From the IMG/VR virus record IMGVR_UViG_3300020728_000001: 35,340 bases of DNA, one strand, 5' to 3'. The position numbers were made by a program, and so were the translations under genes. This DNA comes from a virus. This document shows, one piece after another, positions 1-7,547 of this stretch (its first letter is position 1; each line of letters opens with the position of its first letter). Under the pieces are notes generated by a model that did no database searches, was not told the DNA's origin, and saw only the letters and a program-made list of their open reading frames with translations.

Positions 1-99
1 CAGGCTCTTGCTTCTCTGCGTCTGCGATGGCTTGGCGTAGGGATGTGGTTGCTTCATCAACTTGATCAAACACAAAATCATCCCCAGTAAGAGAACCAT
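1..99. repeat. 99-bp terminal overlap, identical to 35242..35340 (closure of a circular or circularly permuted genome)
   Basis: Read directly: the first 99 nt (caggctcttgcttctctgcg...ccagtaagagaaccat) recur exactly as the last 99 nt. Confidence 0.95.
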
Positions 100-580
100 A
101 ACTTATAACGTTCTCCAACGCCTCAAGCGCCAGTGTCATTGCTTCTTTACTCGTATGTTCATCTTCACTCATCCATGCAACAGGCGCATCTTTTGTTTCT
201 AGTGCTTCTTCTAAGGCTTTGATAGCGTCTTCTTTTGCTTCACGAATAGATGAACCCCAAGTGTCTTTTGATTTCAATACCTCTAACGCTTGTTGCATTA
301 CTTCTTTAGTCATGGTGTTTCCTTGCTCGGATTGATGGGGTAACGGCTCGGTTGTAATGTGCTTACGTCCGTTGTTGTCTGTGATTATTCGTTCAGTCAT
401 AAGTTTAACCGCCACAGGCTCCTGTTCTGGTTGTGCCAAAACTTCTTGGATAGAAATAATGGTTGACCACACTTTATCTTCTGAATAAAGTCTTTCACCA
501 TTTCGCATCAATCTAAATGTTTCTTCTCGCACTTCTTTTAGTGTGTCTAGTGCAAGTCGTAATGCTTCGTCTTTGGTCAT
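1..580 (-). CDS. Hypothetical modular protein, N-terminal part. The ORF runs off the window start and continues at 35241..34910 (303 aa after removing the overlap)
   Basis: Hand translation from ATG 580..578 (MTKDEALRLALDTLKEV...) shows no stop down to base 1. ATGA overlap with the stop of 577..771. An in-frame internal ATG at 313..311 (MTKEVMQQALEVL) follows AAGGAA. The ORF is missing from the track because it has no stop inside the window. Confidence 0.6.
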   Translation of the reverse strand, partial: MTKDEALRLALDTLKEVREETFRLMRNGERLYSEDKVWSTIISIQEVLAQPEQEPVAVKLMTERIITDNNGRKHITTEPLPHQSEQGNTMTKEVMQQALEVLKSKDTWGSSIREAKEDAIKALEEALETKDAPVAWMSEDEHTSKEAMTLALEALENVISYGSLTGDDFVFDQVDEATTSLRQAIADAEKQEP

Positions 581-771
581 TCTTGTCCCCTTGCACGAAT
601 TTTTAAACCTACTATTCCAGTCAAATAACCAGGATGCTCATCACATAACTTTGCACACGCCTCACGTTCTTTTTCTGCTACTAATTTGGCAAAACGCAAT
701 ATTTCAACATCTGTAAAACTAGATTCATCAAACGTTTTATCAGCCATCTCTATGATTTCTTCTTTAGTCAT
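577..771 (-). CDS. Hypothetical small protein (C-terminal EREACA...IRARGQE motif)
   Basis: 64-aa ORF with ATGA start/stop overlaps on both sides (771/768 and 580/577). The C-terminal motif is shared with 5392..5673. Confidence 0.6.
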   Translation of the reverse strand: MTKEEIIEMADKTFDESSFTDVEILRFAKLVAEKEREACAKLCDEHPGYLTGIVGLKIRARGQE

Positions 772-1010
772 TTAGGTTTCCCCATTCTCTCGTCATCCCA
801 CCTGGCAATCTCTAACCGAATCTCTTTGTTCTTAGCGCAGTTGATCAGCTCACGGTAAAAGATCTCGCTGTACGTCTCCCGCCACTCTTTTGCCAGCTTT
901 CTCTTACTAGGCTTGCTAATGCAAGAGAGGGCACGTTGCATCTCCTTCCTGAGTTTCACACGAGATGCGTACAACTGCTGTTGCATATCCTTCTGCAAAT
1001 CCATACCCAT
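768..1010 (-). CDS. Hypothetical small basic protein (start uncertain)
   Basis: 80-aa ORF whose stop overlaps the next start (ATGA at 768..771). Its 5' part overlaps 916..1122 in another frame. Confidence 0.45.
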   Translation of the reverse strand: MGMDLQKDMQQQLYASRVKLRKEMQRALSCISKPSKRKLAKEWRETYSEIFYRELINCAKNKEIRLEIARWDDERMGKPK

Positions 1011-1122
1011 ATGCCTCTGCTACCAGTTTATTCTTCTCTCTCTGCACCTGGACAAGACTCTCCCACAGCACACGACATCTGTGCCGTAGTTCGTCTTCTT
1101 CTTCCCAGAGCAGATTACCCAC
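916..1122 (-). CDS. Hypothetical small protein
   Basis: 68-aa ORF. GTG start overlaps the TAG of the upstream ORF (TAGTG at 1120..1124). Contains AEAYGYGFAEGY. Confidence 0.4.
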   Translation of the reverse strand: MGNLLWEEEDELRHRCRVLWESLVQVQREKNKLVAEAYGYGFAEGYATAVVRISCETQEGDATCPLLH

Positions 1123-1340
1123 TAGGCCACCCTCCAGACGTGCAACGTACTCCCGTTGCTCTTACAAGTGAACTTGTACCCCAACCTCTTCCCCGCCCTG
1201 TAGTTGGCGTTGTATACCTTGTCCCGATACTCCACGGGCACGGCAAACGAATCCCCCACGTCCATCTCCTCATATGGGTAATCAAAGATTACTTTTGGAC
1301 TAGGCATCTCTACACCTTTTACTATCTCTATTCTTTGCAT
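1122..1340 (-). CDS. Hypothetical protein, first gene of the minus arm
   Basis: 72-aa ORF. GAGGTG Shine-Dalgarno about 8 nt upstream of ATG 1340. Confidence 0.65.
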   Translation of the reverse strand: MQRIEIVKGVEMPSPKVIFDYPYEEMDVGDSFAVPVEYRDKVYNANYRAGKRLGYKFTCKSNGSTLHVWRVA

Positions 1341-1366
1341 ACTCTACACCTCGTCAGATAACCCTG

Positions 1367-1394
1367 AGTATACATAAAAAAAGAGGCCATGCAA
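1367..1394 (-). promoter_or_regulatory. Possible proximal sigma70-like promoter for the minus arm (TTGCAT-16-TATACT)
   Basis: Minus strand: -35 TTGCAT (1394..1389), 16-nt spacer, -10 TATACT (1372..1367) preceded by TG. It overlaps the 3' arm and U-tract of the terminator. Confidence 0.35.
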
Positions 1395-1414
1395 GCACAC
1401 GCTCACATGACCTC
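1376..1414 (-). terminator. Intrinsic terminator on the minus strand
   Basis: Minus strand: GAGGUCAUG (1414..1406) pairs with CAUGGCCUC (1391..1383), giving 9 bp including one G-U. 14-nt loop, then U7 (1382..1376). Confidence 0.65.
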
Positions 1415-1420
1415 AACCCC

Positions 1421-1456
1421 TAAGTGGCAACTGCGGGGAAAACACTTAATTTTTTT
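1421..1456 (+). terminator. Terminator-like hairpin plus T7 on the plus strand, back to back with the minus-strand terminator
   Basis: TAAGTG (1421..1426) pairs with CACTTA (1443..1448), followed by A then T7 (1450..1456). The stem is AT-rich and only 6 bp. Confidence 0.3.
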
Positions 1457-1836
1457 GGGGTGGGCGCAATGTGGGGGTCACGCATACAGCACCCTCAGTC
1501 CCCATCGAGTGGCCGCCACCAGCTGGCTGCAGCAATAGAACACGCTCAACACCCCAATCCCATAACTTAACATAACGCTCGACGTATCAAATAGACGCTA
1601 TGGACATCAGGCAGCAGCTGCATCGAGCTGGACCGTGCCCCATCTAAGATGTGGCCACCAAGGTCATAACGTGTTGGCCACACACCAGAGCACTCACAGG
1701 CCCGTATCTAATCAATAAGATAACGAGCTGTGGAAGTCACCCTCACCAGGTGGCAGCCTATTATCCTGATACCCTGTTAACTATATAGCAACACACCTCA
1801 ATATTGAATGAATGTACGTCTCCCTATTGAATACAG

Positions 1837-1864
1837 ATTATACATAGTTAAAACCTATTATCAA
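1837..1864 (-). promoter_or_regulatory. Sigma70-like promoter firing leftward (TTGATA-16-TATAAT, TG directly upstream of the -10)
   Basis: Minus strand: -35 TTGATA (1864..1859), 16-nt spacer, -10 TATAAT (1842..1837), preceded by TG (1844..1843). Confidence 0.55.
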
Positions 1865-1892
1865 CTTTACATACATTTACACTACTTTCCAC

Positions 1893-1920
1893 TTGACAAC
1901 TCGTCAACTAACCCTATAAT
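1893..1920 (+). promoter_or_regulatory. Consensus sigma70-like promoter firing rightward (TTGACA-16-TATAAT)
   Basis: TTGACA at 1893..1898 and TATAAT at 1915..1920, both perfect hexamers. Lies 28 bp from the divergent -35. Confidence 0.65.
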
Positions 1921-1981
1921 CATTACGTTACATATTGACCTATATGTAATAAACCTCTTAATCCTAACCGAGAGCAAAACC

Positions 1982-2659
1982 ATGAAAATTATCCCTATTC
2001 ACCCAATGAATAAAGCCGCTGCCAAGTCGATCAATGGCGGCTTAACCTCTACCTCTAAAATGCCCTGTAAGTCTTACAGTTTGCCCACGGAGGCTTGTAT
2101 TACAGGTTTCAAAATGGCTCAAATACCTGGCAGCATATGCGCCAGCTGCTATGCCGATAAAGGGTTTTACAAAATGTATGCTAACACTGTGAAACCCTCA
2201 CAGTTTGCCAGGTTAGATTCTATTGATAACCCTCTATGGGTCGATTCAATGGTTAACTCTATTGGCTCTGATGAATATTTTCGCTGGCATGATAGTGGTG
2301 ATCTACAGAGTTTGGCTCATTTTGAGAAAATTGTTGCTGTTGCACAATTAACTCCAAATTGTAAGCATTGGCTGCCGACAAGAGAGTATGCAATCATTAA
2401 AGCATACAAGGCCACAGGTAAGAAAATCCCTAAAAATCTAATTGTCAGATTATCGGCTATGTACCCGGATAAAAAAGTCGTTATTCCTGGCAGCTTACAA
2501 GGGTTTGCCAATGTGACCACGTCTAATGTACATACAAGCATTGAATCTCTTGAGGTCAATCAATTGGGCCAGGCTTGTATTGCACCTAAGCAAAACGGTG
2601 AATGTGGCAGCTGCCGATCATGCTGGTCCACGGTAGAGGTTAGTTATTCAATGCACTAA
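1982..2659 (+). CDS. Cys-rich protein resembling the GP88 phage family (function unknown)
   Basis: Track ORF 1808..2659 trimmed to ATG 1982 (MKIIPIHP...), because 1808..1981 covers the AT-rich promoter region. Strings recalled from the GP88 family: SLPTEAC...CASCYADKG, FRWHDSGD, LPTREY, and a C-terminal CGSCRSCW. Confidence 0.5.
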   Translation: MKIIPIHPMNKAAAKSINGGLTSTSKMPCKSYSLPTEACITGFKMAQIPGSICASCYADKGFYKMYANTVKPSQFARLDSIDNPLWVDSMVNSIGSDEYFRWHDSGDLQSLAHFEKIVAVAQLTPNCKHWLPTREYAIIKAYKATGKKIPKNLIVRLSAMYPDKKVVIPGSLQGFANVTTSNVHTSIESLEVNQLGQACIAPKQNGECGSCRSCWSTVEVSYSMH

Positions 2660-2733
2660 ATAATAGCCTACAGGGCCTTTAATGGGTCTTGTGGGATGCT
2701 ATTTTGCATCATCCTAACTCTGGAGTTTTAATA

Positions 2734-3003
2734 ATGAAAACTGTTTTTACCTCGCATGGCCATGATGCTTGTTCGGTTAAGTATCTAGATAAAGTTTTTG
2801 ACATTCTTGAAAATCGCAGTTTTATTAGACGTGGACATTACGTTTTTGAAATTATCGGTTTTAATGGTGCAGAGCGACAATTATGTGGAAATTTGTCTAG
2901 AAGTGGGATTACTCTAATGTGCGATCCAGCTGTCGATCTAGTTGATATTATCCGTAAAGAGTTTAAAAAATACGAATCTCTACAATCTAAATTATTTGCT
3001 TAA
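2734..3003 (+). CDS. Hypothetical protein
   Basis: Track ORF 2689..3003 trimmed to ATG 2734, which follows GGAG with 8-nt spacing. 89 aa. Confidence 0.55.
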   Translation: MKTVFTSHGHDACSVKYLDKVFDILENRSFIRRGHYVFEIIGFNGAERQLCGNLSRSGITLMCDPAVDLVDIIRKEFKKYESLQSKLFA

Positions 3004-3087
3004 TAGCTAAAAATCTAGCGTATAGGGGTTTATATTGACCTCTATGCGATAGGTTTTTCCTATCATTTAATCCTAACGAGGTAAACC

Positions 3088-3291
3088 ATGATTAAATACA
3101 AAACCTGGCAAGACGGTAACCACACCACCGAACGGTACAAAAGAACACTATATGAAGCTTTCCCTGGCCATCAAGACTACAACATTTACGAACCCCATGA
3201 CCTTTATGCGATTGACGATGATGACTCATTGATTTTAGCTATCGGGTTTGTGTTTTCGATAGTTTGCATCATTTGGTCTATTTTCTGGTAA
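3088..3291 (+). CDS. Small tail-anchored membrane protein, hypothetical
   Basis: 67-aa ORF with an acidic DDDD stretch followed by a C-terminal hydrophobic helix (LILAIGFVFSIVCIIWSIFW). The upstream cassette is shared with gene 1982. Confidence 0.55.
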   Translation: MIKYKTWQDGNHTTERYKRTLYEAFPGHQDYNIYEPHDLYAIDDDDSLILAIGFVFSIVCIIWSIFW

Positions 3292-3492
3292 GTGATAAGA
3301 TCTGCACCACGGGGATAGTCCACCAGTCCCTGGGTGCGGTAGGCATGACCAATCCCGATAAACGTACTGAACTCTGCTTGTATCTCCTGGGAGCATATTC
3401 CCTCGGGGTAGTGAAAACAGGGGTGTCCTTAATGGGACATAAGTTAGATAAACGAGAATGCCCATGCGAGAGCATGATTACCAGTAAAAAAG

Positions 3493-3501
3493 TTATCCAC
3501 A
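3493..3501 (+). promoter_or_regulatory. Perfect DnaA-box consensus TTATCCACA in an ORF-free region
   Basis: Exact 9-mer read at 3493..3501. It is a single copy, so this may be chance. Confidence 0.3.
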
Positions 3502-3541
3502 GGGTAGCTTTCTCTGGTGGCTTTCCCTATGACGATAAGCT

Positions 3542-3573
3542 CCCCAGCCTATGGTGGGGTTTAAAATTTTATT
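3542..3573 (+). terminator. Weak terminator-like hairpin with a T-rich tail
   Basis: CCCCA (3542..3546) pairs with TGGGG (3555..3559), 8-nt loop, then TTTAAAATTTTATT. Confidence 0.3.
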
Positions 3574-3618
3574 AGTTCTCCCTCTCAAATCCCCATGTAA
3601 CCCTTAAAAGGCACACAC

Positions 3619-3825
3619 ATGATTGAACTTCTACAAAAGAGACGTGTACAGCTGGCCAAGTTGTACAAACAACAGGCCACAGGGGTGTTGTACACCAGGC
3701 TAAATGAGGTTGATCTCTTGATCAAGAGATACAAACGCACACATAAGCAAGTGGACACATTGCCCACAGTTGCGCCCACAATCAACACGAACAAAAAGGA
3801 GGTTAAAGATTTACTTGCAGACTAA
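3619..3825 (+). CDS. Small basic hypothetical protein
   Basis: 68-aa ORF. Its 5' leader CCTTAAAAGGCACA-N3-ATG is shared with gene 3894. Confidence 0.55.
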   Translation: MIELLQKRRVQLAKLYKQQATGVLYTRLNEVDLLIKRYKRTHKQVDTLPTVAPTINTNKKEVKDLLAD

Positions 3826-3842
3826 TCATCTATATGTATAAT
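3815..3842 (+). promoter_or_regulatory. Sigma70-like promoter (TTGCAG-16-TATAAT) for the recombination operon
   Basis: -35 at 3815..3820 and -10 TATAAT at 3837..3842, preceded by TG. Same ATGTATAAT string as the minus promoter at 1837..1845. Confidence 0.5.
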
Positions 3843-3893
3843 CCACTTTGTGGCTAGTCCACATATTCCTAACTTTCCTTAAAAGGCACAAAC

Positions 3894-4784
3894 ATGAGTG
3901 ATTTCTCACCCGCAACACGCAACGGGTCTATGTGGTCTGGAGACTCCAGGCGCATTGCTCAAGGCAAAGCAAACGAGGTCATATTGACCAAAACAGGCCA
4001 GATGGAGATTCCAGACTTATCTCACATCGAGGCGGTCCAGATGGGCCATGTGATGGAACCAGTGATCGGTAGACTAGCAGCCAACAAGCTGCAAGTTGAA
4101 CTCCACAAGATCGAGGACGCAATCACGCATCCAAAAGAGTCCTGGTTAAAGTCGCACTTTGACTTTGTAGGAAAAGAGAACGGGGAGACATTCCTCGTTG
4201 AATGTAAGAACTACAACGCTGCAGTCCGCAACAAGTTCAGTGAAGGAATTATCCCTCCCGCTGACCTGGCACAGTGCATCCATGAGGCCCTGGTGTACGG
4301 CTGCAGCACTGTCTACCTAGCAGTCCTCTTTGGCGGTCAAGAGCTAGAGCTGTTCCCTGTCTACGTCACAGAAGATATGAAGAACAACCTGTTGTTTAAA
4401 CTGGCAGAAGTCTGGGGGAGAATTCAAACAAAAAATCCATACCCACCAGAGGATTTGGAGCAAACTAAGCTGATGTTCCCAACTGCCACAGAAAGCCTTA
4501 AAACGGCCTCACAGAGCGTAGAAATGGCCTGTAACACCCTAGCGTCCATCAAAGCACAAATAAAGGGCTTAGAGGCACAGGAGGAGCAGCTGCAGACCCT
4601 CATCCAGGGCTATATGGAAGACAAGGGGACATTGGTGACTGTTGACAACAAAGTGCTGGCTACCTGGAAGAACGCCAAGGCCAGCAACAAGTTCGACAGC
4701 AAGTTGTTCCAGCAGTCCATGCCAGACATTTATGAGCAGTTTGTGCGCCCTATTCCAGGCAGCAGAAGGTTTCTAGTCAAATGA
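3894..4784 (+). CDS. YqaJ/lambda-Exo-like PD-(D/E)XK recombination exonuclease
   Basis: 296 aa. Contains HFDFVGKENGETFLVECKN (D...E-x-K nuclease core), as in YqaJ-type viral recombinase exonucleases. Coiled-coil C-terminus. Linked to an annealase gene. Confidence 0.75.
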   Translation: MSDFSPATRNGSMWSGDSRRIAQGKANEVILTKTGQMEIPDLSHIEAVQMGHVMEPVIGRLAANKLQVELHKIEDAITHPKESWLKSHFDFVGKENGETFLVECKNYNAAVRNKFSEGIIPPADLAQCIHEALVYGCSTVYLAVLFGGQELELFPVYVTEDMKNNLLFKLAEVWGRIQTKNPYPPEDLEQTKLMFPTATESLKTASQSVEMACNTLASIKAQIKGLEAQEEQLQTLIQGYMEDKGTLVTVDNKVLATWKNAKASNKFDSKLFQQSMPDIYEQFVRPIPGSRRFLVK

Positions 4785-5101
4785 AGACTAAAAAGCCTAA
4801 ACCTATCAAACCTGCACCAGTGTTTGAGTTTGCTGCTTGTACTAAATGCCACGGGTCTGGTAAAAGTAAAGAATACAGATGTGAAGGAATGTTATTAGCA
4901 GAGCGTTTTGATGGTGGCAGACACACTAAAAGTTACCAACAATGCACTTGTGAAGGCACAAACGAGGTAGAGTTTGATGATGGTTCTCTCTATCATTGTT
5001 GCGGAAGACACCTCGCTGTTCTCACTCGTTTGATTGAGAAAGAAAGCAATGACGAATTCACTTTGATTAAAGTAAAGGAACATTATGATGATGGACTTTA
5101 A
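4781..5101 (+). CDS. Cys-rich zinc-finger-like protein
   Basis: 106 aa. CTKCHGSGK (CxxCxGxG) plus further Cys pairs (C..C, CC). ATGA overlap with the upstream gene. Confidence 0.55.
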   Translation: MKTKKPKPIKPAPVFEFAACTKCHGSGKSKEYRCEGMLLAERFDGGRHTKSYQQCTCEGTNEVEFDDGSLYHCCGRHLAVLTRLIEKESNDEFTLIKVKEHYDDGL

Positions 5102-5399
5102 CCCCTACCAACACGATCTGTTCACCAAATACAGGAAAACAGACCCGATCACGTCTAGACAGGCTGCAGAACGCACGCTAGACAAGATCACAGAGATACA
5201 GCAGAAAGTCCTTAATTACGCTCTAGATCGTGGTTACTTAGGCTTTACTGATGAACAGTTAAATTGCTACTTCAACACACACAAAAGCACTTACAGGTCC
5301 AGGCGTGCAGAGCTGGTGAAGAAAGGTCTCATTGTGGACGCTGGTACAACCAGGAACAAAATGACGGTGTGGGTTCATAAGGAGTTCTCTAATGACTAA
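5085..5399 (+). CDS. Winged-helix DNA-binding protein
   Basis: 104 aa. TDPITSRQAA...LGFTDEQL...YRSRRAELVKKGLIVD...TVW matches the common phage wHTH pattern. Confidence 0.55.
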   Translation: MMMDFNPYQHDLFTKYRKTDPITSRQAAERTLDKITEIQQKVLNYALDRGYLGFTDEQLNCYFNTHKSTYRSRRAELVKKGLIVDAGTTRNKMTVWVHKEFSND

Positions 5400-5673
5400 A
5401 GATGAAGAAATGTGGTTACGAGAGTTAGCGGCTGGACGATGCGTTATTACAAAAGTAACAGAACAACTTGGCCCAATGTCTTTATGGTCTAAGGATGGGC
5501 TAGAAGCAGAAATACGCAGAGCAGTAGAAGCCGAGCGTGAGGCAATAGCGCAGATGTTTGAAGGTGCGCCTGCATTGGTGCAGTTTGCACAGAACGACAA
5601 AGGAGGCTGTTTGGTTTGTGGGTTTACACCAAAGCTAATAATTGAAGCCATTAGAGCAAGGGGACAACAATGA
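5392..5673 (+). CDS. Hypothetical protein (AEREAIA...C..C...AIRARGQQ motif)
   Basis: 93-aa ORF overlapping both neighbours. The C-terminal motif is paralogous to 577..771. Confidence 0.6.
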   Translation: MTKDEEMWLRELAAGRCVITKVTEQLGPMSLWSKDGLEAEIRRAVEAEREAIAQMFEGAPALVQFAQNDKGGCLVCGFTPKLIIEAIRARGQQ

Positions 5674-5909
5674 ATAAAGTCTATCCCTTTCTACACCGTA
5701 ACCCCACATCTGGCCTAGTCACCCAGCATGATGGTATAGATCAGCGTCTATGGGTGGCAACACACATAGCAGCTGGAATGGTCTCTTACGCTTATAGCAA
5801 GTGCGCTACGGTGGAAGAGATCGCAGCATCCTCGTTTGCAGTCGCAGACGCAATCCTAACTTTTAATGAAGGTAAACCCTATGAGCAACCAGTTAATACC
5901 CCTGAATGA
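5670..5909 (+). CDS. Hypothetical protein
   Basis: 79-aa ORF with an ATGA overlap with the upstream gene. Confidence 0.5.
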   Translation: MNKVYPFLHRNPTSGLVTQHDGIDQRLWVATHIAAGMVSYAYSKCATVEEIAASSFAVADAILTFNEGKPYEQPVNTPE

Positions 5910-6720
5910 CATTCAGACGATGGCAGAAGTCGCTGCTGGATCTAAGATGTTTGGGTTTAAAAACCCACAAGAGGCAATGGCAATCATGTTGCTGTGCCAG
6001 GCTGAAGACTTACACCCTGCTATTGCTATGCGTGACTATCACGTCATCCAAGGCCGTCCAGCTCTAAAGGCTGACGCAATGCTAGCAAGGTTTCAGGCAG
6101 CTGGTGGAAGTGTTAACTGGAAGGACTATACAGATGAGCAGGTCACGGGAGTATTTAGTCATCCAGCGGGCGGCAGCCTTGAGGTCACCTGGACACTTGC
6201 AAAGGCCAAACTCATTGGTATTGCGGGCAAGGACAACTGGCGCAATTATCCCAGGGCAATGTTGCGTGCTAGGTGCGTCTCTGAGGGTATCAGATCGGTC
6301 TATCCAGGCTGCGTTGTCGGTGTCTACACGCCTGAAGAAGTACAGGATTTCCAGCCTCCCAGACAAGAACAAGCTGCTGTACCACCGTCTCCAGTTGAGA
6401 TCATTAAAGAAGTGGTTAAACAACAATTAGACGCAGAATGGCCTCTATTCGTTCCAAATTTAGAAGAGGCACACAGTGCCCACCACACGCCAGAAGAGTG
6501 GATAGAGGCTTATGCGGGGCTTGTAGAGCGTATTAACGGCAGTGCAAAGCTGAAAGTACAAGAGAAGACAGACAAGATCATGTCTTTGTACGTTTGCAAC
6601 CAGATGGTTGTAGACAAGTTCAGCGCACACCAACGCATTTTGCTCAGAAGTGCTATTGCCCAAGCTGGTGTAGACCCAGCAACTCACATTCCCACAGACG
6701 CAGAAACCATAGATTTATAA
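5881..6720 (+). CDS. Single-strand annealing protein, RecT/Red-beta superfamily-like
   Basis: Track ORF 5866..6720 trimmed to ATG 5881 (GAAGG upstream). NYPRAMLRARCVSEGIRSVYPG...YTPEE resembles the HPKRMLRHKA...GIYDKDE region of lambda Bet. Paired with the exonuclease gene. Confidence 0.6.
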   Translation: MSNQLIPLNDIQTMAEVAAGSKMFGFKNPQEAMAIMLLCQAEDLHPAIAMRDYHVIQGRPALKADAMLARFQAAGGSVNWKDYTDEQVTGVFSHPAGGSLEVTWTLAKAKLIGIAGKDNWRNYPRAMLRARCVSEGIRSVYPGCVVGVYTPEEVQDFQPPRQEQAAVPPSPVEIIKEVVKQQLDAEWPLFVPNLEEAHSAHHTPEEWIEAYAGLVERINGSAKLKVQEKTDKIMSLYVCNQMVVDKFSAHQRILLRSAIAQAGVDPATHIPTDAETIDL

Positions 6721-7471: not shown

Positions 7472-7547
7472 GGGACGTTAGCTCAGCTGGTAGAGCAGCG
7501 GACTTTTAATCCGTTTGTCGTGGGTTCGATCCCCGCACGTCCCACCA
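7472..7547 (+). tRNA. tRNA-Lys (anticodon UUU) with encoded CCA
   Basis: Hand-folded cloverleaf. Acceptor GGGACGT/ACGTCCC; D arm GCTC-AGCTGGTA-GAGC; anticodon arm GCGGA-CTTTTAA-TCCGT; variable loop TTGTC; T arm GTGGG-TTCGATC-CCCGC; discriminator A, then CCA. Confidence 0.9.

Follow-up and report, generated by a model that had tools for sequence, protein, structure and literature searches.

A near-invariant 55-nt core in an untranslated transcription unit of uncultured freshwater phages, possibly part of a transcription-dependent replication origin

In lactococcal phage c2, the origin of replication occupies a non-coding region that separates divergent gene clusters and has the promoters PE1 and PE2 at its borders, and the non-coding transcript from PE1 is required for transcription-mediated replication; c2 ori types are mutually unrelated in sequence and function without phage proteins (PMC7150918). 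The R-loop origins of ColE1 and T4 combine a promoter with an rG/dC interaction or an unwinding element, and at ColE1 RNA II and T4 oriF and oriG a persistent hybrid primes or activates synthesis by host or phage polymerases (PMC4412123). In phage HK022, put is a nascent RNA of ~70 nt, and no phage protein is required (PMC9378689).

Here we compare with these systems a locus in the genome of an uncultured virus. The window, by which we mean the whole 35,340-nt stretch of DNA that was analyzed (IMG/VR record IMGVR_UViG_3300020728_000001), contains an untranslated transcription unit on the minus strand, located within the non-coding control region that divides the two divergent gene arms of the phage. 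We establish that the stretch from promoter to terminator is a genuine protein-free transcription unit, and that its core, which corresponds to none of the RNA families described so far, is conserved among uncultured freshwater phages of a large family. The unit probably serves either the start of replication or the control of late-gene transcription. As its most likely specific role, with a probability of roughly one in three, our analysis puts forward that of a transcription-dependent replication origin or primer RNA.

The unit spans ~455 nt of the minus strand, between a promoter at 1864..1837 and an intrinsic terminator at 1414..1376, and in every relative examined it lies within a non-coding region of 450-640 nt between the divergent arms. 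Relatives were collected from IMG/VR and JGI freshwater contigs and from GenBank (MW202753). An initial annotation of this DNA had described the unit as devoid of open reading frames (ORFs), and neither strand indeed holds an ORF of at least 60 aa within 1376..1836. The longest minus-strand ORFs measure 38, 31 and 29 aa, and 1-nt indels disrupt every frame in the alignment with a relative of 82% identity (L092); a conserved small coding frame, which the annotation had named as grounds against its own proposal, was thus not found. The 283-aa plus-strand ORF listed from position 1808 is an upstream extension of a GP88-family gene, the true start of which lies at 1982, downstream of its own promoter; in relatives, the gene on this side of the unit is ArdC-like. 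The claim that the stretch is richer in G+C than its surroundings also holds, with a G+C content of 0.53-0.55 across 1401-1700 versus 0.31-0.37 across 1701-2000 and 0.445-0.47 in the gene-side intervals 1201-1400 and 1301-1500.

The annotation had further stated that the unit matched nothing known and had proposed a scan against Rfam, which returned no family on the element in either the window or the loci of relatives. With the covariance models of Rfam 15 at gathering score, covering families that include GOLLD, ROOL, HEARO, 6S, tmRNA, RNase P, riboswitches and self-cleaving ribozymes, the sole match in the window was a tRNA-Lys at 7472-7544; at E-values up to 10, positions 1200-2000 yielded just three chance-level matches of 12-14 bits. 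The loci of 20 relatives gave one tRNA and one Betaproteobacteria-1 match at gathering score, both away from the cores, and the cores in six relatives' loci stayed unmatched at E-values up to 5. ARAGORN detected no tmRNA or tRNA within the element, and no phage DNA resembling it was found in GenBank, the closest entries at the protein level being only two uncultured Manatee Spring phages.

The promoter at the head of the unit, P1 (minus strand, 1864..1837), consists of a -35 element TTGATA (1864..1859), a 16-nt spacer and a -10 element TATAAT (1842..1837), matching the consensus at 11 of 12 positions. This leftward promoter had been reported by the initial annotation and withstands comparison: its -10 is invariant in all eight close relatives, while the -35 varies (TTGACG, TTGATG, TTGTGT). 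P1 is specific to the close clade of the window. On the plus strand, a divergent early promoter at 1893..1920 (TTGACA-16-TATAAT, 12/12) serves the GP88-family gene, and within 1..6000 only these two sites reach 11/12 or better. The same interval contains 11 promoter-like sites for a shuffle expectation of 10.5; since the count equals chance expectation, it is match quality and conservation that matter. Two further minus-strand sites are weaker than P1 and are backed mainly by their conservation in relatives. The putative promoter P2 (TTCAAT-17-TATAGT, 1808..1780) lies inside the unit, overlaps a widely conserved GGTGTGT...CTATATAG motif (1797..1781) and reads TTGAAG-17-TATAGT at the same place in relatives; distant clades display a similar GTGTGTG-N-TCTATAT element with TTGNNN-17-TAnnnT. 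The second site, P_late (1394..1367; -35 TTGCAT at 1394..1389, 16-nt spacer, -10 TATACT at 1372..1367), is presumably the structural arm's own weak promoter. A TTGNNN-16..18-TAnnnT pattern occupies this position in nearly all of the 49 terminator-bearing loci scanned, is kept beside terminators with unrelated stems (e.g. TTGACT-17-TATACT in L148) and is present without a terminator in L163 and L165.

At its 3' end, the unit shows the G+C-rich hairpin followed by a U-tract that defines intrinsic terminators: the hairpin (1414..1383, minus strand) comprises 14 pairs, seven of them G-C, with a 4-nt loop, and the U7 tail occupies 1382..1376. The hairpin and U7 tract of the initial annotation were therefore correct, while its 9-bp stem was an understatement. 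Compensatory changes between U-A and C-G occur at two pairs of the stem in close relatives, the equivalent hairpins of relatives have predicted energies of -12 to -23 kcal/mol, and in 16 of 33 clades a terminator, differing in sequence, is found at this position; in about half of the clades, the core is not followed by one. Upstream of the hairpin, a U-run and a small hairpin (1449..1415, minus strand) carry the conserved GCAGUUGCC (1434..1426). The sequence GCAGTTGCC is kept in terminator-bearing clades while the register of the surrounding hairpin shifts, and where a gene has been inserted behind the core (L158, L160), this sequence remains with the module of terminator and promoter. Downstream, the first gene of the minus arm (p72, 1340..1122, minus strand) encodes a 72-aa protein; its ATG at 1340 is separated from the end of the U-tract at 1376 by 35 nt, close to the 36 claimed. 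Its 5' UTR (1365..1341, minus strand; AGGGTTATCTGACGAGGTGTAGAGT) contains a GGTTAT...TAGAG sequence kept in all relatives that carry the 72-aa gene. This UTR constitutes one copy of a 25-nt repeat (1341..1365), the other copy of which (1891-1915, 20/25 identical) supplies the early plus-strand promoter with its -35 and spacer, in a region (1891..1920) that also holds the inverted repeat TTGAC-N5-GTCAA.

The P_late -35 sits within the 3' arm of the terminator. This arrangement could be read as pure insulation or interference with no function for the RNA, in which a strong early promoter would read into a terminator placed on the P_late -35 and thereby occlude P_late until early shut-off. In 16 clades, as such a reading would have it, the terminator extends over the P_late -35 and spacer, and the 25-nt repeat common to the early promoter and the P_late leader suggests common regulation. 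Yet the near-invariant 55-nt core in 33 otherwise diverged clades would be left unexplained, as would the terminator-less clades, and we give this reading very little credence.

The core (1504..1450, minus strand) is the sole part of the unit that is conserved in all distant relatives. It extends over 55 nt with the pattern UGGG-N19-GUG-A-CCCCC-AC-N-CCCC-A7, in which UGGG maps to 1504..1501, GUG-A-CCCCC-AC to 1481..1471, CGCCCACCCC to 1466..1457 and A7 to 1456..1450, and in the window it ends 36 nt before the terminator hairpin. Searching by DNA pattern was enough to retrieve the core from IMG/VR and JGI metagenomes, and in most of the loci recovered in this way the 72-aa gene lies behind it. 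A profile search over the collected loci returned 146 core matches, the window holding one copy. No core was found in bacterial genomes, where the single match was a chance occurrence in a high-G+C MAG; a prophage or host origin was dropped on this account. Judged by eye, a reading of the core as a sigma-54 (GG-N10-GC) or sigma-70 promoter fits just some of the clades. In composition, the core is very rich in C and poor in G (14.7 C and 1.6-4.4 G per 30 nt), with an A-run and then a U-run behind it, and in some clades a C-run occupies the position of one G-run. It is followed by a conserved A-rich and then T-rich patch of ~40 nt, which may possibly act as an unwinding element.

The remainder of the unit behaves very differently. 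The variable 5' domain (1779..1505, minus strand) is G/U-rich and hairpin-rich, with a GC skew of +0.17 to +0.20 on the RNA strand and more U than A. The 5' two-thirds of the unit are replaced even in close relatives, as is the middle of the 5' domain. Across the family, 66 core variants stand alongside 33 unrelated versions of this domain. Alternating G-rich and C-rich blocks nevertheless recur at conserved distances from the core despite the unrelated 5' domains, and the local hairpins of the domain show compensatory changes within clades.

The fold and covariation analysis suggested by the annotation gave a divided answer, with compensatory changes in the terminator and the local hairpins and no supported fold in the core. 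RNAalifold on 56 cores produced essentially no consensus structure, mutual information in the core alignment was dominated by phylogeny, and the predicted pairing partners of the core vary from clade to clade. A helix enclosing GUGMCCCCCMAC scored no better within sequences than between them (4.09 vs 3.95), a long-range UUGGGG:CCCCAA pairing hinted at by two clades failed a permutation test (p=0.77), and a hairpin with UGGG in its loop was lost in the larger sequence set. The U:A / C:G / U.G pattern at the end of a helix between the second G-run and the first C-run, compatible with 20 of 20 sequences, was not significant. A riboswitch-like pairing of GUGACC with the 5' arm of the terminator is present in the window and, by eye, lost where that arm changes. 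No specific core fold passed the controls, although an A-run able to form a triplex is present. The folding z-score is only -0.48, with a mean of -1.14 over 33 clades.

Conservation of sequence without covariation, together with the exchange of a G-run for a C-run, is what one would expect if the core were a protein-binding DNA element through which transcription is incidental, be it a pac or cos site recognized by terminase, or an upstream activating site or UP-like element that serves the structural-arm promoter. The core adjoins terminase genes in several clades, lying 40-75 nt ahead of TerS, TerL or the 72-aa gene in some; its A6-8/T-tract would bend DNA and, in terminator-less variants, stands 18-50 nt upstream of a -10-like hexamer. 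Several observations argue against this proposal, and we consider it quite improbable. The contig ends that lie close to the core are spread over both of its sides, at 19 to ~370 nt, with no fixed base in common, giving no sign of a physical genome end; because they do not coincide, a cos site was rejected. The terminase genes of the window are ~3.8 kb away from the core, and the distance from core to -10 ranges from 18 to more than 700 nt with no helical phase, which speaks against an activator or UP site. To judge from gene arrangement, moreover, the core is transcribed in relatives, because a co-oriented tRNA and ORF that stand between core and terminator depend on transcription that crosses the core.

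These genes form part of an insertion hot spot located directly after the core, which has taken up a tRNA, ORFs and a reverse-strand gene. One relative (L107) has a tRNA gene within the unit, and in one clade an opposite-strand gene of 240-260 aa lies between the core and the structural genes, which there have their own -10 and -35. The initial annotation had offered a discrete phage ncRNA as one of its readings, citing GOLLD and ROOL as precedent. The precedent does not stand, given the z-score of -0.48, the replacement of the 5' two-thirds and the tolerance of insertions between core and terminator. The reading itself does, at a low probability: the unit would be a stable-RNA gene for a trans-acting or protein-binding RNA, the single-stranded C-runs and A-run of which would bind Rho, Hfq or the 72-aa protein, or base-pair to ribosome-binding sites rich in G. 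The unit's near-consensus promoter, like its strong terminator ending in U7-8, is of the kind found in stable RNA and sRNA genes, the C-rich, G-poor core with an A-run and U-run behind it is compatible with such binding, and the tRNA gene of L107 points the same way. So does the co-occurrence of the 72-aa gene with the core. This protein belongs to no Pfam or PHROG family, its database homologs being all hypothetical proteins; its AlphaFold2 model (pLDDT 85) has no significant structural match, and the best natural one, a KH domain (E=0.09), would suit an RNA partner. Three clades, however, keep the core without the 72-aa gene, which rules the protein out as a universal partner. The large insertions between the core and the 3' end, the half of the clades that have no terminator, the unconserved sequence of the 5' domain and the failure to find conserved target pairing with the structural-arm leader further count against a discrete RNA, which we deem improbable.

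The annotation's other reading, that of a leader with an overridden terminator, fares somewhat better. In this case, the RNA would be the 5' leader of the structural and lysis transcript, the core would make RNA polymerase resistant to termination, either alone (as in HK022 put) or with a factor (as in lambda nut/N and Q), and the 455-nt species would be a terminated by-product, like lambda 6S RNA. The orientation of the core is fixed, always heading the arm with the terminase, structural and lysis genes, and strong promoters or terminators are lacking from the interior of this 27-kb minus arm. In about half of the clades no terminator intervenes between core and first gene, and a core-to-gene distance of ~45 to more than 700 nt suits an RNA signal acting at a distance; put, a nascent RNA of similar size (~70 nt), works on terminators at least 10 kb away (PMC9378689). 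Against this stand the conserved sigma-70-like P_late, which follows the terminator, has its -35 within the hairpin and would yield transcripts without the core, and the opposite-strand gene of 240-260 aa that separates the core from the structural genes in one clade. No Q-, N- or LoaP-like protein was found by Pfam or PHROG among 20 window proteins taken from across the plus arm and from the first part of the minus arm, in agreement with the annotation, which had recognized no Q-like gene; the Cys-rich 106-aa protein it had named as a weak candidate (4781..5101) could not be linked to the element. The window also encodes a winged-helix protein (5085..5399). Neither a two-stem-loop nor any other fold has covariation support, and a constitutive RNA-only antiterminator would render the strongly conserved terminators pointless. 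On balance, we view antitermination as somewhat unlikely.

A transcription-dependent replication origin, which the initial annotation had not considered, is at least as likely as its two readings in view of how the genome is laid out and of the replication genes that are missing. Under the origin reading, transcription would begin at P1 and probably at P2 too, cross the G/U-rich hairpin domain and then the C-rich core with its A-run, and stop at the terminator (1414..1376). The transcript would activate or prime DNA synthesis by host enzymes, with the priming site at the core or just behind it, in the A/T-rich patch, while the terminator would bar early transcription from the structural genes, which would use their own weak promoter. 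The link to replication and the hybrid-forming or priming step are put forward here by analogy and as conjecture.

Several features favor this interpretation. The layout is c2-like: two co-directional promoters flank the unit, and the stretch from one to the other holds no conserved ORF. The search for replication genes in the window recognized only RecE-like, RecT-like and SSB-like proteins and no initiator, polymerase, helicase or primase, and the annotation of the complete relative MW202753 lists no such initiator or replication enzyme either; nor is there a DnaA-box cluster, for want of which a DnaA-dependent origin was rejected. An independent promoter behind the terminator would explain why early transcription is halted before the structural genes. 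The core is kept as sequence, with no supported helix and with the G-run/C-run swap, which suits a signal at the level of DNA or of a hybrid; the RNA strand is G-rich overall with repeated G-blocks, an A-rich/T-rich patch lies behind the core, and relatives have an A/T-rich, repeat-rich stretch immediately upstream. Other observations weigh against an origin. No sequence signature seen here points to replication. The conserved runs close to the 3' end are rC (dG in the template), the opposite of the ColE1 rG:dC hybrid, and the non-coding transcript of c2 heads to the early genes, whereas here it heads to the structural arm. In the half of the clades that have no terminator, the transcript would enter the structural genes, which a leader would fit better. 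An unrecognized initiator may also hide among the uncharacterized proteins of both arms, such as the GP88-family protein. The window contains a second ORF-poor stretch at ~3050..3618, which could equally house the origin.

Taken more broadly, the core and the variable G-rich RNA upstream of it may represent a new family-wide signal, a proposal we hold tentatively, at something short of even chances. The signal would be either a start of replication without an initiator or an RNA class for terminator read-through, so that small lytic freshwater phages would start replication from a host-polymerase transcript, or host RNA polymerase would be made to pass terminators; in either form, its sequence and architecture would be unrelated to those of ColE1 RNA II, c2 PE1-T and HK022 put. 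The locus thus bears on the question of how replication begins in small lytic phages that have no replication initiator, and on the timing of a 27-kb structural operon without known regulators, especially in abundant uncultured freshwater phages. If the unit is only a leader or an insulator, it would be one among thousands of candidate phage RNA motifs, of which 8,495 unnamed ones come from IMG/VR (PMC10690425). The core is in any case a sharply defined, near-invariant 55-nt mark of the two-arm junction in at least 33 diverged phage lineages, useful as a landmark for annotating and orienting metagenomic phage genomes, and the site directly behind it naturally attracts inserted cargo (a tRNA, what may be a homing-endonuclease gene, and other genes).

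Compared with known systems, the unit resembles GOLLD and ROOL in being non-coding, phage-borne and several hundred nt long, and in sometimes adjoining tRNA genes; it departs from them in its lack of an Rfam match, its weak thermodynamic signal, its mostly unconserved length and its tolerance of large insertions. With HK022 put it shares a comparable size and a position between promoter and terminators at the start of a long operon. The two stem-loops of put, the first with a triplex, have no supported counterpart here, and putL, with its -10-like pause element, directly follows its promoter, whereas the core lies ~300-360 nt downstream; put works in cis by way of the beta' zinc-binding domain, and put-like action would, moreover, not serve transcripts starting at P_late. 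Like lambda PR'-6S-tR'/Q, the unit places a strong promoter and a short terminated non-coding leader before a very long late operon, and lambdoid phages have tRNA and moron insertions in the late-leader zone as well. Unlike in lambda, a Q-like gene was not found, the terminator is missing from half of the relatives, and the leader is twice as long, with its conserved part at the 3' end rather than at the promoter. In addition, the late operon of lambda has no promoter of its own behind the terminator, where the sequence here presents the conserved, putative P_late.

The likeness to ColE1 RNA II and to T4 oriF and oriG lies in a promoter-driven, untranslated and folded transcript of a few hundred nt, with a G-rich RNA strand and an A/T-rich patch downstream. 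The unit differs from these R-loop origins in ending in a strong terminator, and from ColE1, where an rG stretch pairs with template dC, in that its RNA has many G-runs while the runs conserved towards the 3' end are rC. ColE1 priming is in addition controlled by the antisense RNA I and depends on RNase H and Pol I. With the c2 origin, a fragment of which supports plasmid replication in the host, we know of no sequence similarity. The unit is nonetheless like that of c2 in being non-coding, in lying between divergent arms and in having two co-directional promoters with no ORF or RBS between them. It is unlike c2 in direction, PE1-T being the first early transcript toward the early genes and the transcript here running toward the terminase, structural and lysis arm, and in that a short near-invariant core extends family-wide here, whereas c2 ori types are conserved only within type.

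The promoter scan placed a minus-strand promoter, P1, at 1864..1837 (TTGATA-16-TATAAT, 11/12), and an intrinsic terminator on the same strand at 1414..1376, whose 14-pair stem (7 G-C) closes a 4-nt loop and leads into T7; it is stronger than first described. No ORF of at least 60 aa lies between them on either strand; on the minus strand the three longest, of 38, 31 and 29 aa, are each interrupted by single-base indels in a relative with 82% identity. G+C content, previously judged by eye to exceed that of the surroundings, is 0.53-0.55 across 1401-1700, versus 0.31-0.37 in the promoter zone. Because of this combination of promoter, terminator, coding content and composition, the ORF-free unit of about 455 nt proposed in the initial annotation is real and correctly positioned. 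A divergent early promoter of perfect consensus (1893..1920, plus) serves the GP88-family gene starting at 1982.

The remark that the unit matched nothing recognised also held in Rfam 15, which yielded no match on the element for the window at the gathering score, for positions 1200-2000 at E up to 10 or for 26 loci of relatives. No GenBank phage with shared DNA was found, and the nearest records at the protein level are two uncultured Manatee Spring phages. Elsewhere in the window, a tRNA-Lys gene (anticodon UUU; 7472-7547, plus) is found where the early arm ends. The early arm of one relative (L142, 1-115, minus) carries a Betaproteobacteria-1 RNA (RF02932, 90 bits) about 2.2 kb from the conserved segment described below, which hints at Betaproteobacteria as hosts; this family has no match in the window.

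Querying IMG/VR with the flanking proteins, the GP88 protein and p72 (the 72-aa product of the first gene of the minus arm), yielded 160 loci. The eight closest relatives keep the first ~70 and last ~140 nt of the unit, the middle being swapped for unrelated sequence, and the near-consensus P1 is specific to the close clade of the window. In distant relatives, with p72 57-69% identical, only ~55-60 nt of the unit remain. The conserved core, which occurs once in the window (1504..1450, minus), follows the consensus UGGG, ~19 nt, GUG-(A/C)-CCCCC-(A/C)AC, 4-10 nt, a second C-run and (AU)A5-9. Used alone, its degenerate DNA pattern added 30 stretches from IMG/VR and 37 from JGI metagenomes, three of the latter being low-complexity chance matches; among 185,579 species genomes it hit just one, a high-G+C MAG, by chance. 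Distinct cores number 66, and the sequences upstream of them fall into 33 clusters that share no recognisable similarity with one another; a core profile produced 146 matches in the loci collected, including the complete GenBank relative MW202753. Judged by these sequence matches, the element belongs to uncultured freshwater phages of one large family and is absent from sequenced bacteria. One contig (Ga0194049_1000017, 67,895 nt; loci L204 and L206) holds two core copies ~5 kb apart with the same genes after each, which may reflect a concatemer or an assembly repeat.

The non-coding stretch that separates the two divergent gene arms is 450-640 nt long and has the core at its end in every case, always on the strand of the terminase/structural/lysis arm. 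Pure insulation as the role of the unit strikes us as very improbable. A p72 homolog follows the core in most pattern-found loci, and in three clades the core directly precedes the small or large terminase gene or other genes. For 16 of the 33 clusters our detection rule located a terminator no more than 300 nt behind the core, and it missed that of L151; the remaining clusters have none. The point just behind the A-run of the core is a hot spot for insertions. Loci L084 and L095 contain there a 53-nt insert (columns 432-484 of alignment A1) with its own hairpin and U-run, between duplicated copies of TATGTGTTTTCC, which looks like a target-site duplication from a small mobile element. A separate, structured insert has an outer helix that, by eye, stays paired through A-U, G-C and G.U changes. 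In L107 a tRNA gene (3736-3807, plus), co-oriented with the unit, begins a few bases past the A/U-rich tail behind the core and precedes the terminator, while L158 carries a co-oriented 162-aa ORF (3225-3713, plus) between the core and a module of GCAGTTGC, terminator and promoter, and L160 has an ORF at the same place. The C-terminus of the L158 ORF is HNH-like by eye (CxxC...HHxDY...WLCxxHH); Pfam returned no match at E up to 0.01. The co-oriented tRNA gene and ORF between core and terminator show that, in relatives, transcription crosses the core in the direction of the unit. In a further clade, an opposite-strand gene of 240-260 aa lies directly behind the core (L163, 4993-5781, minus; also L162, L171, L174, L181 and L195), and the A-run and U-run form a perfect 8-bp hairpin, CAGAAAAA...UUUUUCUG.

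For its composition, the 455-nt RNA has an unremarkable folding energy (z = -0.48); over 33 clade representatives the mean z-score is -1.14. Compensatory changes within clades fall in the terminator and in local hairpins of the variable 5' domain upstream of the core, where G-rich and C-rich blocks alternate at fixed distances. On these grounds the transcript is hairpin-rich. A large ornate RNA, for which GOLLD and ROOL had been invoked as precedents, is not supported, and we consider it unlikely that the unit is a discrete trans-acting or protein-binding RNA. RNAalifold found no fold on the core, and its predicted pairing partners vary from clade to clade. Three candidate pairings failed simple controls: a helix enclosing the GUGMCCCCCMAC segment, a long-range one of UUGGGG:CCCCAA, and a hairpin that would present UGGG. 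Some clades have a C-run in place of a G-run inside the core, which is very C-rich and G-poor, with an A-rich and then a T-rich patch behind it. Together, the missing fold, the exchange of runs and the composition make the core signal look like conserved sequence (single-stranded, hybrid or DNA) rather than a set of covarying helices. If it acted only as DNA, the core could be a pac or cos site, or else an activator or UP site. Contig ends fail to coincide and the distance from core to promoter is unconstrained; we hold either role to be quite unlikely.

Nearly all of 49 terminator-bearing loci scanned carry TTGNNN in the 3' arm of the terminator hairpin, 16-18 nt before a TAnnnT just past the U-tract, and this arrangement is kept even with unrelated hairpins (TTGACT-17-TATACT in L148, TTGCGT-17-TATGAT in L098). 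The corresponding site in the window, P_late (TTGCAT, 1394..1389; TATACT, 1372..1367; minus), belongs to this sequence pattern, and its -10 and the GGTTAT...TAGAG leader are kept wherever p72 is present. The promoter-like pair is found behind the reverse gene in L163 (TTGTAT-17-TATGAT) and with no terminator in L165 (TTGTGT-18-TATAAT). This sequence conservation leads us to think that a promoter of its own serves the structural arm. Within the 27-kb minus arm, strong promoters and terminators are absent. The sequence GCAGTTGCC (1426-1434, minus) is kept in all terminator-bearing clades while the surrounding hairpin shifts register. It accompanies the module of terminator and promoter, 15-31 nt ahead of the -35, and could act either as a protein site or as an RNA seed. 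A second promoter-like site inside the unit, P2 (1808..1780, minus; TTCAAT-17-TATAGT, TTGAAG-17-TATAGT in relatives), overlaps a GGTGTGT...CTATATAG motif present in many clades. The p72 leader (1341-1365) forms a 25-nt direct repeat (20/25 identical) with 1891-1915, the -35 and spacer of the early promoter, and this promoter also holds the inverted repeat TTGAC-N5-GTCAA; one regulator may use the repeat as a shared operator.

The protein scan took in twenty products of the window, from most of the plus arm and the beginning of the minus arm, and yielded GP88-family, RecE-like exonuclease, RecT-like annealase, SSB-like, winged-helix-like and family-2 glycosyltransferase proteins and unknowns. 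None of them was recognised as a replication initiator, polymerase, helicase, primase or sigma-like protein, nor, in agreement with the initial annotation, as a Q-like one. The annotation of MW202753 likewise lists no DNA polymerase, helicase, primase or replication initiator, and labels one 43-aa ORF as a sigma factor. No DnaA-box cluster was found in the window. The p72 protein (1122-1340, minus) shows a tight link to the core and belongs to no Pfam or PHROG family; 24 positions, including the YPYEEMDVGDSF motif, are invariant in a 34-sequence alignment. Its AlphaFold2 model is confident (pLDDT 85, beta-alpha-beta-beta) and has no significant structural match; the best natural one, a KH domain (E=0.09), is only a lead.

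The earlier suggestion of a late leader governed by antitermination, as in lambda 6S/Q and HK022 put (PMC9378689), accounts for the fixed position and orientation of the core, for terminator-less clades and for a geometry of action at a distance, but sits poorly with a promoter following the terminator, with the reverse-gene clade and with the lack of both an antiterminator gene and a supported put-like fold; we regard it as possible, if doubtful. We favour, with a probability of roughly 0.35, the reading that the unit would be a transcription-dependent origin, which would explain why a promoter follows the terminator, why replication genes are missing, why conservation is of the sequence type and why there is an A/T patch. 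Against an origin stand the conserved runs, which are rC and not rG, the direction of the transcript towards the structural arm and the half of clades without a terminator. The sole perfect DnaA-box match of the window (3493-3501) lies in an early-arm stretch (~3050-3618) with only doubtful small ORFs, behind plus-strand terminator-like hairpins (2667-2695, 3019-3048), which is a further candidate for a non-coding or origin region.

Non-coding control or origin units that separate phage gene arms are already known as a kind; the family, its invariant core and a terminator bearing the -35 of the next promoter are without description in Rfam or the literature examined, and the unnamed IMG/VR candidates in PMC10690425 may include pieces of the unit. 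R-loop mechanisms operate in ColE1 and T4 (PMC4412123). In phage c2, the non-coding PE1 transcript is required for transcription-mediated replication, ori types differ wholly in sequence and no phage protein is needed (PMC7150918). In layout the unit matches the origin of this lactococcal phage in being non-coding, in lying between divergent arms and in having two co-directional flanking promoters, the first of which makes an untranslated transcript.
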